Source: Verrucomicrobiales bacterium (lineage in GTDB: Bacteria > Verrucomicrobiota > Verrucomicrobiia > Verrucomicrobiales > SLCJ01). Taken from it: DNA of 24,581 nucleotides. This document shows, piece after piece, positions 20,276 through 24,581 of the stretch (the stretch's first letter is position 1; every line of letters starts with the position of its first letter). A program made the position numbers and the translations under genes. The stretch lies in the NCBI GenBank assembly GCA_046075565.1, contig JBJTQJ010000029.1:1-24581 (forward strand), read 5' to 3'. The notes below the pieces were generated by a model. The model was not told the DNA's origin, did not search any database, and saw only the letters and a program-made list of their open reading frames with translations.

Positions 20276-21268
20276 ATGTCGTCCCCCGCTCTCCAGGAAA
20301 TCGAGAAAGGCTCATCGCTCTGGCATGACGCGTGGTTGCGCCTGCGCAAGAACCGCGCCGCCATCTTCTGCCTTGTCTTTCTTTTCTTCATCGCGAGCGC
20401 GTGCGTGATCCTGCCTGTTTTCACCATGCACCCCGGAGATCAGGGCATGCTGGCGAAAATGAGTTTCCTCAAGGATCCATCGCTGATGAGTCTGCCGGAC
20501 AAAAACCTGCCACCCAGTGCGGAGCATTGGTTCGGCACCGACCATCTCGGGCGCGACATCTTTTCCCGTGTTCTTTACGGCGGGCGGGTTTCCCTGCTCG
20601 TGGGTGTCGTTACCACGTGCGTCGCGCTGGTCATCGGGACCATCGTGGGAGCCACCGCCGGTTATACGGGCGGCCGCACCGATACCTTCCTCATGCGGCT
20701 GGTGGATATCCTCTACAGCCTGCCATTTCTAGTCATCGTTATCCTCCTCGCCACCGCCATGAAGCCGGTGACCGACGGGATGACCGACTGGGTGATCAAG
20801 AAAACGAGTTGGGACAGGAAAGCGGTCGAACCCGTCACCACTCTCGTTCCGCTCTTCATGGCCATCGGGGCGCTGTCATGGTTGAATCTTGCCCGTATCG
20901 TGCGATCACAGGTGCTGGATCTCGTGAAACGCGAGTTCGTCGAGGCGGCCCGATCGCTCGGCCTCGGCCATGTGCGCATTCTCTTCCGCCACATCCTTCC
21001 GAATGCCCTTGGTCCAGTGATTGTTTACACGACATTGACCGTGCCGGGTGTGATGTTGTTCGAAGCCGCCTTGTCGTTCCTCGGTCTGGGCATCAAACCC
21101 CCGAACAGCTCATGGGGCACGCTCATCCAGGAGGGCGCCGACCGCATGGTGTCGAATCCATGGCTGCTCGCCTTCCCCGCCCTCTTCTTCTCCTCCACCC
21201 TGCTCGCGTTGAATTTCCTCGGCGACGGTCTCCGCGATGCCCTCGATCCCAAATCATCCAAGGATTGA
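20276..21268 (+). CDS. oppC: Oligopeptide ABC transporter permease
   Basis: SLW.DAW.RL.KN, HWFGTD.LGRD..SR..YGGRVSL, EFVEAARSLG, RHILPN, LGDGLRDALDP. Confidence 0.93.
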   Translation: MSSPALQEIEKGSSLWHDAWLRLRKNRAAIFCLVFLFFIASACVILPVFTMHPGDQGMLAKMSFLKDPSLMSLPDKNLPPSAEHWFGTDHLGRDIFSRVLYGGRVSLLVGVVTTCVALVIGTIVGATAGYTGGRTDTFLMRLVDILYSLPFLVIVILLATAMKPVTDGMTDWVIKKTSWDRKAVEPVTTLVPLFMAIGALSWLNLARIVRSQVLDLVKREFVEAARSLGLGHVRILFRHILPNALGPVIVYTTLTVPGVMLFEAALSFLGLGIKPPNSSWGTLIQEGADRMVSNPWLLAFPALFFSSTLLALNFLGDGLRDALDPKSSKD

Positions 21269-21272
21269 TCCC

Positions 21273-22262
21273 ATGCCTTTGCTCGAAGTCCAGGACCTGG
21301 CTGTCCATTTCCACATGCGCGGTGGCATCGCCCGCGCGGTCGATGGCGTGTCTTTTTCCGTCGAACGCGGCCAGACCGTTGGCATCGTTGGTGAATCCGG
21401 TTCCGGAAAGTCGGTCACTTGTTATTCATTGCTCGGATTGATTCCCAAACCTCCCGGCGTCATCGCCGGAGGGCGGGCGCTCTTCGATGGGCAGGACCTC
21501 CTGAGCATGGACGAGGAATCCTTGCGCCGCACGCGCGGCAAAAAGGTCTCCATGATCTTCCAGGATCCGATGACCTCGCTCAACCCGTATCTGAAAATCG
21601 GGACCCAGGTGGTGGAGCCGCTCGGCCTGCACGAGGGTATCCGCGGGAAGGAAGCATGGAAGCGCGGCATCGCCGCCCTCGAGGAGGTCGGGATTCCCGA
21701 CGCGGCCAACCGCATGCACGCCTATCCGCATGAGTTTTCCGGCGGCATGAGGCAGCGGGTGATGATTGCCATGGCCTTGATTACGAAACCGGATTTGCTC
21801 ATCGCCGATGAACCAACTACCGCTCTCGACGTAACCGTGCAGCGTCAGGTGCTCGACTTGATCCGCAATCTCCAGCGCCAATCCGGCACCGCGGTCATCT
21901 TCATCACCCACGACTTGGCAGTGGTCAGCGAAATGTGCGAGATCGTCAACGTGATGTATGCCGGACGCATCGTCGAACGCGCTCCCGTGACGGAACTTTT
22001 CCGCGCCCCGGAGCACGCTTACACCCGCGCTCTTCAGAAATCCATCCCGGCCATGCATGCGCGGGGAGAGGAACTGCACACCATTCCAGGACTGCCGCCC
22101 GACTTGATGCGCCTGACCACCGGATGTGCGTTCAAAGCACGCAACACCCTTGGCGTAGCCTCAATGTGCCTCACCGACAGACGTCCCGAGTTGGTGGAAA
22201 TTTCCCCGGGTCATTGGGTGCAAGACTGCCCCGGCTGCCGGGCCAAGCTCACCAACCGCTGA
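21273..22262 (+). CDS. oppD: Oligopeptide ABC transporter ATP-binding protein
   Basis: Walker [31 protein letters not shown], Walker [18 protein letters not shown]. The ATG at 21273 lies 4 nt after the oppC stop. Confidence 0.95.
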
Positions 22263-24084
22263 AGGTTGCGCGGATGATACAAGGCCCTTGTGCTGGGGAC
22301 GAACAAACGACCTGAACCTGACGGAGACCGGGATTGGGTGAATCCCACTCGCCGCCGGGCTTTTCCATCGAGACCACTTCGATCGAACTTCCGGGAGGCA
22401 GGTCAAGATCGAGATGCAGCGTTTTGCCGTTTTCGCGCAGACTGACCCGCTGCCCTTCGACGGTGGCCTCGGCCTTGATGTTCATCGTCCAGCGGATTTT
22501 GGTGCCCGGATCCTTCGCGTGAACCACATCTCCTATGGCGACGGACTTTTCCGCCCAAGCAACATGCCGGAATGCGCGTTCGCAGGATGACCCGAGAACC
22601 CCGGAGAAATCAATCACGGCCCCGGTCCCATCGGCGCGGAGAAGTTTCGCGAGTTGATCCGCACGATGAGCCTGACCGCCCACGGTCAGGGTATTGTGCC
22701 CATTATTGTTCAGACGGAACAATTTCCAGCGTTCTGAGTCTTGTTTGAAGTCCCAAAGCGAAAGGTCCATACTTTCGATGCGATAGTAGGGCTCGGCACG
22801 AAGCTCATGAGCCCACCGCACGCCCATGGCATCAAGGATAAACGCGCCGGCGTCCATGTGCCCGTGACTGACAGCTGCACCACCGGCTTTGATACCGAAA
22901 TAGGCTGCTTCGGGATTCTCCCACGAGGAACGCCAGTAGGCGACCGGATTTTCGCCGCGCCCGTGCCAATGCAATGGCAAGGGTTTGGATTCCATCGCCA
23001 AAGCCGACGGCCACCAACGGGCGACCAACGGATCCCAGATGCCAGGCTGGGTAACGGCTCCTTTGGATGCGGCCAGGTTTCTTCGTTCGTGAAACAGATA
23101 CCCGGCGTTCTTCTTCTCCCTTGCCATCCAGACCATGACCGGAGAACCGGCCTTGCCAGTCCCGCAGTCGGCGAAGTTGTGGAAATCGCCCGCAGGCCCG
23201 GAGGAATGGAGGTAAAAATCCGCCGATGCCAGCCAAGCGGGATTCCGGGCAACCCCTCCGTCGTCGCCGAACGCGCTGCGCAAGCCTTCGATGGTAAGAA
23301 CCTGATACATGGAGCCATAGTTCCAATAACCGGGTCCTTCGGGATAAACACCGTCCGGCTCGAGGGGAGCCACCCCCGCCGACATCGTCTCGCGGGCCTT
23401 GGCGATCAATTCCCGCATGATTTCGGGTTGTTCATCACCGATGGCGAGGGCACCGAGAAGAATACCTCCCCAGCAAACCTGGTTCCAGTTGTTGTGCATG
23501 ACGGGGAATCCCTTGCCGCGCCGGGCGAGGTCGAGGGCCGGTCGCAATCCTTTTGTTAGAATCGCATCGGCGATGGTTTCCCGCTCCGCTTTCGTCAATT
23601 CCTCCTGCAGCCAGTCGTAACCCACGGCGAGCGCGGCGGTCATTTCCGCGACATCAAGAAAGTGTGAAGGATTCCAGTCGGTGAACGAGGCGGCCGCCAA
23701 CATCTCATCAATGGCCCGCCGCCCACAACCGCTGGGACCACCCGTGCGGTGGGTGAAGGCGAGATGCACGACTGCCTTTGCCACCTCGCGGGAGACACTG
23801 AGAAGACGTTTGCCTTCCATCACCCGTTTGGCAGGTTCGGATTTCAGCAACTTCGCGGCCGAACCATGGATACTGGTCACCAGTTCTTCCGGGGTCAAGC
23901 CCGCCGATCGATCGCGCGCCAGGGCATCCCAATCTGCTTTCCGCAAAAGCAGGCGCGGATGTTCGGGAAGAAGATCGCGGGAAACGCTGTCGGCCAAGGC
24001 CCGGGTGATTTTTACCGGCATCAATCCGGCTCCCGAGGCCATGAGAAATCGATGGCAGAAGTTACGGCGAGGAATCGGATTCAT
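22249..24084 (-). CDS. Tat-exported heparinase II/III-like polysaccharide lyase family protein
   Basis: Twin-arginine signal PRRNFC; HPRLL, WNPSHFLDVAEM, GYDW, NNWNQVC, PDG.YPEG.GYW.YG, NFAD, HGHMDAG.F, HNTL. The 3' end overlaps oppD by 14 bp. Confidence 0.88.
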   Translation of the reverse strand: MNPIPRRNFCHRFLMASGAGLMPVKITRALADSVSRDLLPEHPRLLLRKADWDALARDRSAGLTPEELVTSIHGSAAKLLKSEPAKRVMEGKRLLSVSREVAKAVVHLAFTHRTGGPSGCGRRAIDEMLAAASFTDWNPSHFLDVAEMTAALAVGYDWLQEELTKAERETIADAILTKGLRPALDLARRGKGFPVMHNNWNQVCWGGILLGALAIGDEQPEIMRELIAKARETMSAGVAPLEPDGVYPEGPGYWNYGSMYQVLTIEGLRSAFGDDGGVARNPAWLASADFYLHSSGPAGDFHNFADCGTGKAGSPVMVWMAREKKNAGYLFHERRNLAASKGAVTQPGIWDPLVARWWPSALAMESKPLPLHWHGRGENPVAYWRSSWENPEAAYFGIKAGGAAVSHGHMDAGAFILDAMGVRWAHELRAEPYYRIESMDLSLWDFKQDSERWKLFRLNNNGHNTLTVGGQAHRADQLAKLLRADGTGAVIDFSGVLGSSCERAFRHVAWAEKSVAIGDVVHAKDPGTKIRWTMNIKAEATVEGQRVSLRENGKTLHLDLDLPPGSSIEVVSMEKPGGEWDSPNPGLRQVQVVCSSPAQGPCIIRATFSGW

Positions 24085-24240
24085 GGGCGGGGACGTTTGT
24101 CTCGCCACCTACGGCAAGCCGTTGGCAGGAGACTAGACGTTCTACGGCCCCGGACACGAGATTCTTTCCCCAGTCCAAGCTTTTGAACCTGCGGCCAAGC
24201 CCCATGCCGTTCACCGGGCACCAGAGTCAAGGAATTGAGA

Positions 24241-24307
24241 TCCGTTTCAGGGCAAGACCGGGCATACTTCGCCAAGGCTTCGAAGGCTTCAACGGTCTCG
24301 CAACGGA
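24241..24307. repeat. Nested inverted-repeat (REP-like) element
   Basis: TCCGTT 24241-24246 / AACGGA 24302-24307; AGACCG 24255-24260 / CGGTCT 24293-24298; core CTTCGCCAAGGCTTCGAAG 24267-24285. Confidence 0.45.
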
Positions 24308-24338
24308 CGTGAGGAGAATCGATTCGGGCAAAGCCAGT

Positions 24339-24479
24339 TTACTGCTGTTGGCGAAGTGCTTCTTCCTGACGGCGCCGCATTTCTTCCTGCTGCTGGCGGC
24401 GTTGCTCCTCCATTTGTTCGCGACGTGCCTCTTCCTGGCGACGCTGCATTTCCTCCTGCTGCTGGCAGCGTTGCTCTTC
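24339..24479 (-). CDS. C-terminal fragment of a Glu/Gln/Arg-rich helical repeat protein (two 23-aa units)
   Basis: EEQRCQQQEEMQRRQEEARREQM / EEQRRQQQEEMRRRQEEALRQQQ then TAA. The 69-nt units differ at several synonymous sites (GAA/GAG, CGT/CGC). No credible start. Confidence 0.65.
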   Translation of the reverse strand, partial: EEQRCQQQEEMQRRQEEARREQMEEQRRQQQEEMRRRQEEALRQQQ

Positions 24480-24480
24480 A

Positions 24481-24581
24481 CAGCACCACATCAGGCCGCA
24501 GCAGGTTGTAGCACGTGTACAGGCAGGCTGCAAAGCACTCCGGCTCCTTGGCCGACACAAACCAGCGCAGCAGCTCCTCCG
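24481..24581 (-). other. Fragment of eukaryotic-type clathrin heavy chain coding sequence
   Basis: Frame from 24579 reads [33 protein letters not shown] then TGA (24480-24478). It matches the remembered clathrin heavy chain segment AEELLQWF......[21 protein letters not shown], including C-x3-C-x3-C. Confidence 0.88.

Follow-up and report, generated by a model that had tools for sequence, protein, structure and literature searches.

Interspecies chimeric contigs are frequent in draft and metagenome-assembled genomes, where foreign sequence sits in a contig that passes marker-based quality checks. For benchmark data, a preprint reports them in 444 of 640 near-complete MEGAHIT metagenome-assembled genomes (69.4%; bioRxiv 10.64898/2026.10.15.759294). 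The stretch of DNA analysed here, in the following termed the window, is the whole of a contig of 24,581 nucleotides (G000:C29, positions 1-24581, hereafter C29) from a Verrucomicrobiales bacterium, and its last 101 bases are an algal piece. It resembles the described chimeras in that the foreign sequence lies in a contig of an assembly that passes such checks (3.9 Mb, 129 contigs, completeness 100, contamination 1.05) and is placed at the contig end beside a repeat. It differs from them in that the foreign part is eukaryotic, measures 101 bases and meets the bacterial DNA at a junction without shared sequence. A eukaryotic tail of this length, attached in this way, suggests that the template was chimeric and speaks against an error in the graph.

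Three further systems invite comparison. The first is the clathrin heavy chain of green algae of the family Scenedesmaceae. The 33 residues encoded at the end of the window are identical to residues 1562-1594 of one such protein (P0152), and the underlying DNA is identical in material from three studies. The difference is one of extent and context: here, 33 of about 1693 codons are present, cut off by a stop codon and joined to bacterial DNA. The second comprises the membrane-coat-like proteins of the Planctomycetes-Verrucomicrobia-Chlamydiae (PVC) bacteria, which are reported to be related to coat proteins by structure, combining a beta-propeller with alpha-helical repeats (PMC2799638). The similarity lies in the host phylum and in the thematic link to coat proteins, whereas the piece in the window copies an algal gene exactly and has no coat-like architecture: it amounts to 33 residues, and no propeller or CHCR domain of the kind that would make up a beta-propeller plus alpha-solenoid protein was found in the assembly. 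The third system is formed by the DUF6600 (PF20245) proteins of Verrucomicrobiales and other phyla. The bacterial gene next to the algal piece shares with them both the domain and a repetitive, charged C-terminal tail rich in E, Q, R, K and A, and is distinguished by being split over two contigs, C29 and C14, since the assembly did not get through its nearly perfect 69-base units.

The algal piece occupies 24481-24581 on the minus strand, forms the foreign tail of C29 and contains the codons for residues 1562-1594 of P0152 plus two extra bases at the contig edge. The corresponding minus-strand frame (24478-24579) is open on its 5' side to the window edge, runs for 33 residues and ends with a TGA codon (24480-24478 on the minus strand) directly after …PDVVL. 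When the 33-mer was compared with all PDB chains by phmmer, all six listed matches were clathrin heavy chains (E values from 5e-12 to 3e-11). It aligns end to end with residues 1551-1583 of the 1675-residue mammalian clathrin heavy chain, that is with a C-terminal, trimerisation-proximal segment, and 23 of the 33 positions (70%) are identical in the printed phmmer alignment. The C-terminal trimerisation region of clathrin starts here. Cysteines occupy peptide positions 15, 19 and 23. Codon choice likewise sets the fragment apart from the genes around it. All six leucine codons are CTG, all four glutamate codons GAG and both phenylalanine codons TTT, with a GC3 of 0.85, as opposed to CTG 0.30, CTC 0.34, GAA 0.57, TTC 0.75 and a GC3 of 0.70 in the 11 long open reading frames of the window. 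Under bacterial usage the joint chance of the fragment's codon choices is 1.4e-6, a value that was calculated post hoc and is indicative only.

These results are in full agreement with much of the initial annotation, which had been made from the letters of the window and had described a minus-strand frame open to the window edge, assigned it to the clathrin heavy chain with roughly 70% identity to the human protein and three cysteines spaced by four, and pointed to a CTG/GAG/TTT bias unlike that of the window genes. The PDB matches, the exact occurrence of the 33-mer in the algal protein P0152, the alignment and the codon counts bear all of this out. The extent given for the clathrin piece, 24478-24581, has to be shortened: the 101 bases from 24481 to 24581 are foreign, while 24478-24480 are not part of the foreign DNA. 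An abrupt stop of the similarity had also been noted, and the TGA indeed sits exactly where the algal gene continues with EVAWMNKLMD.

As to the origin of the tail, 1.84 billion representative proteins were searched exhaustively with HMMER. Of the 365 matches at E values up to 0.001, three, all short gene fragments (P0001-P0003), are 100% identical over the 33 residues. In these fragments the 33-mer is embedded as METVAVSDSPELA–(33-mer)–EVAWMNKLMDYAMPYVIQSVKEY.GKV. When the first 73 residues of one fragment (P0002) were used to look for longer proteins, full-length clathrin heavy chains of 1692-1693 residues were obtained that are 99% identical over the query and have the Pfam domains typical of the family (propeller, linker and CHCR). 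Among named proteins, those of Scenedesmus sp. NREL 46B-D3 (89%), Tetradesmus obliquus (88%) and Monoraphidium minutum (81%) are closest to the 73-residue query, and those of Gonium, Volvox, streptophytes and animals follow further down, all with 71% identity or less. The 33-mer itself gives the same order, with 30, 29 and 25 of 33 residues identical in Scenedesmus sp. NREL 46B-D3, T. obliquus and M. minutum, respectively. An exact copy was present in four of the 267 proteins fetched, namely in P0001-P0003 and in the full-length P0152 (1693 residues, positions 1562-1594). Since the nearest named clathrins are those of Scenedesmus and Tetradesmus, the donor is a chlorophycean green alga (Sphaeropleales) close to the Scenedesmaceae (Scenedesmus/Tetradesmus). 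A green-algal source had already been guessed in the initial annotation, and the closeness of the Scenedesmaceae clathrins along with the identity of the tail DNA to algal contigs speaks for that guess. As a side observation on the algal gene, similarity between the fragments P0001-P0003 and the full-length protein is lost right after …KEY(S/T)GKV, where P0152 goes on with DLLMGERKEAKE…; this suggests an intron in the alga's clathrin gene at that point, which would lie downstream of the piece in the window.

Public sequencing runs yielded insight into how the algal sequence continues. For a look-up of 24450-24581 in a public-run index, seven words were sampled. The best holders carried five of the seven. 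They represent six studies and comprise four polyA 'algae metagenome' libraries, one named organism, and metagenomes from freshwater and other sources; the RNA label of the polyA libraries is a guess, and no holder is on record as RNA. No listed run had more than five of the seven sampled words, and none of the indexed runs was found to contain the junction. Four runs (X1, X4, X6 and X13) were compared with 24000-24581. Contigs of three of them, each from a different study, match 24481-24581 with 0 differences: a 4356-base contig with a depth of 260 from the named organism (X1), a 303-base contig from a freshwater metagenome (X4) and a 2925-base contig from a polyA 'algae metagenome' library (X6). 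Before 24481, all three share the same 30 letters, which are unlike those of the window and translate in the clathrin frame to EVAWMNKLMD. The same ten residues follow the 33-mer in P0002, P0003 and P0152 and thus represent the true clathrin continuation. In the window, the frame lacks the remainder of the trimerisation region (…LEVAWMNKLMDYAMPY…) and meets TGA where the alga has EVAWMNKLMD. Reading the TGA as part of an intron start (CT|GTGAAG) was considered and rejected: the DNA contig from X4 and the polyA contig from X6 share the same coding continuation, so that the break does not mark the border of an intron. X13, the fourth run, is a lake water metagenome with two of the seven words. 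It contributes only short contigs, which show one to three differences in 24496-24581 and of which one diverges past 24541; these pieces are from a relative's gene and do not represent the junction. The bacterial part, 24000-24480, was covered by none of the four runs compared, and a scan of JGI metagenome contigs for the exact 101-base pattern gave 0 matches.

On the other side of the junction lies a bacterial gene that is itself incomplete. The minus-strand segment 24339-24479 holds the C-terminal end of a DUF6600 lipoprotein gene, consisting of its last two 69-base E/Q/R units (…EEQRCQQQEEMQRRQEEARREQMEEQRRQQQEEMRRRQEEALRQQQ) and the stop codon at 24339-24341. The rest of the gene (locus L009) is located at C14:3-2714 on the minus strand, with a frame that is open at the contig start. 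The two parts complement each other: the C14 part is without a stop, and the C29 part has a stop and is without an N-terminus. The former carries a lipoprotein-like signal (…LVLPSC…), a DUF6600 domain that clearly exceeds the family cut-off (PF20245, E 4.9e-35, 120.1 bits against a cut-off of 27) and a tail in which EEARREQMEEQRRQQQEEMQRRQ-type units fill more than 500 residues. Searched alone, the C29 part (24342-24581) matches no Pfam family; it is linked to the DUF6600 gene by its repeat, with 24345-24479 matching C14:7-600 on the same strand at 75-89% DNA identity. This E/Q/R repeat is absent from every contig of the assembly other than C29 and the start of C14. The end of C29 and the start of C14 are thus explained by one DUF6600 gene that was broken by its own 69-base tandem repeat, and the two contigs are probably neighbours joined through this repeat.

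DUF6600 homologues with intact frames of 413-1009 residues occur in 16 of 30 related genomes. At the nine relatives' loci that were examined, the frames are intact (575-1009 residues) and similar charged, repetitive tails are present in every case, E, Q, R, K and A making up a fraction of 0.54-0.83 of the last 200 residues. The closest relative's protein is 48% identical, none of these relatives belonging to the same genus, and the record titles of more distant homologues are from Verrucomicrobiales and neighbouring groups.

With both parents in hand, the junction can be placed to the base. Similarity to the repeat, as judged from an alignment with four repeat stretches of C14, ends at 24479, and identity with the alga starts at 24481. 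The single base in between, an A at 24480, fits neither parent. The algal contigs have a C at this position, as do the C14 repeat units after GCTCTTC, and it is the A in the window that completes the TGA closing the clathrin frame. The junction is blunt, and the 30 algal letters preceding 24481 bear no likeness to the repeat. Clathrin and repeat are read in different frames, and therefore no fusion protein is encoded. The repeat frame does stay open through the tail, giving 80 codons up to the contig edge. Note that this carries little weight because 40% of shuffled versions of the tail also give an open frame of 33 codons. A second irregularity is found a few bases away, in the bacterial repeat: 24467 creates a cysteine (EEQRCQ) where all seven C14 units read EEQRRQ. 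It is the sole cysteine of the repeat, the 505 repeat residues on C14 containing none. Together, 24467 and 24480 look like errors from a read with thin support.

From the evidence on the two sides we consider it very probable that 24481-24581 is an artefactual chimeric contig end and does not belong to the bacterial genome. We infer this from the two parent sequences and not from junction-spanning reads. Each parent continues differently past the junction, the alga with its clathrin gene in three runs from three studies and the bacterium with its repeat on C14, and the tail is terminal, right beside a repeat common only to C29 and the C14 start. C29 ends within a long tandem E/Q/R repeat that the assembler could not resolve, and a 101-base piece of an algal clathrin gene or mRNA would have been joined to this end, be it in vitro or in silico. 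A single chimeric read or template, made up of some bacterial repeat followed by algal DNA, may have been enough to extend the contig, in which case the length of the extension would correspond to about the remainder of one read. Such a molecule could have arisen by ligation of fragments or by template switching during library amplification. A chimeric contig end was also the reading preferred in the initial annotation, and it gains support from the terminal position, from the divergence of both parents, from the closeness of the clathrin to those of Scenedesmaceae and from the algal and freshwater samples that hold it.

In principle, the same arrangement could have come about without a chimeric molecule, if the assembler, a scaffolding, gap-closing or polishing step had connected a path of the bacterium with one of the alga, for example through a shared short word. 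It is true that graph errors gather at contig ends in repeats, which is just where the tail is found. On the other hand, the true algal flank at the junction shares nothing with the repeat, and no tail word of at least 21 bases recurs elsewhere in the assembly, so that there is no shared word through which the paths could have met. As the 21-mers of the tail are found nowhere else in the assembly and the algal flank is unlike the repeat, a de Bruijn graph join through a shared word is unlikely, and the tail comprises merely 101 bases, about the remainder of one read. The blunt junction without a shared word makes a chimeric template the simpler cause, and we regard a pure mis-join as improbable.

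An even smaller chance is left for a real transfer, in which an alga-associated member of the Verrucomicrobia would have acquired DNA or cDNA of the alga, with insertion of a clathrin fragment in the repeat region of the DUF6600 gene. In its favor are the presence of the join in the deposited contig and the occurrence of the alga in freshwater and algal samples, where such bacteria may live too. If it were true, it would be a eukaryote-to-bacterium DNA insertion caught in the act, in a hypervariable repeat gene, and non-functional as clathrin. The tail is, however, 100% identical over 101 bases to present-day algal sequence from three studies, and any transfer would therefore have to be extremely recent. 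Moreover, the piece lies exactly at the contig end inside the unresolved repeat, does not share the reading frame of the host gene and runs into a stop codon at the junction, the 3.9-Mb assembly holds no further clathrin sequence, and the missing part of the bacterial gene is accounted for by C14.

Last, a native PVC clathrin-like gene, descended as an old homologue from the same stock as the eukaryotic coat proteins, would suit a host from the neighbourhood of Verrucomicrobiales and the membrane-coat-like proteins reported for PVC bacteria (PMC2799638), but it can be dismissed with near certainty, as old homology is incompatible with a nucleotide identity of 100% to an alga, the sequence consists of only 33 codons ending in a stop, the codon use is unlike that of the host and no propeller, linker or CHCR repeat was found in the genome. 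With regard to the latter point, PF00637 (CHCR repeat) gave 0 matches in the whole assembly, and the full clathrin architecture (PF01394 propeller; PF13838 and PF09268 linker; PF00637 CHCR) was not found in the genome. When three full-length algal clathrins were used as tblastn queries against the assembly, the 33 residues on C29 (100% identity) were the only match at E <0.04, the next best having an E value of 0.048.

We thus state that there is no bacterial clathrin in this genome and no sign of functional transfer, and that the tail is not a real genomic feature. The biological weight of the observation is small, and its value lies in quality control. Although rated 100% complete and 1% contaminated, the genome contains a eukaryotic tail that a naive reading would turn into a spectacular PVC clathrin. 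The final 101 bases of C29, or 24480-24581 with the junction base included, merit trimming. The artefactual chimeric end also hints weakly at a Scenedesmus-like green alga in the same sample or in the same sequencing batch. That the alga marks the host or habitat of the bacterium is put forward as a possibility only, because a chimera can also form between libraries that were handled together.

Our analysis also covered the bacterial DNA next to the DUF6600 stop, which offers an ordinary bacterial context. An open reading frame of 619 residues (22249-24108, minus strand) has a weak match to a heparinase II/III C-terminal domain (PF07940, E 2.4e-7, 31 bits) and adjoins an open reading frame for an oligopeptide-type ABC ATPase (21237-22262). 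A heparinase-like gene beside DUF6600 was seen in none of 19 relatives' loci, the relatives being at most 50% identical and nine of the loci being represented with 1.5-kb flanks only. A short intergenic element (24218-24306, core about 24247-24298) lies between the DUF6600 stop and the start of the heparinase-like gene. It recurs at 90-98% identity and in both orientations on 15 other contigs, with 20 further HSPs, and is a dispersed repeat, REP- or MITE-like and about 52 bases long.
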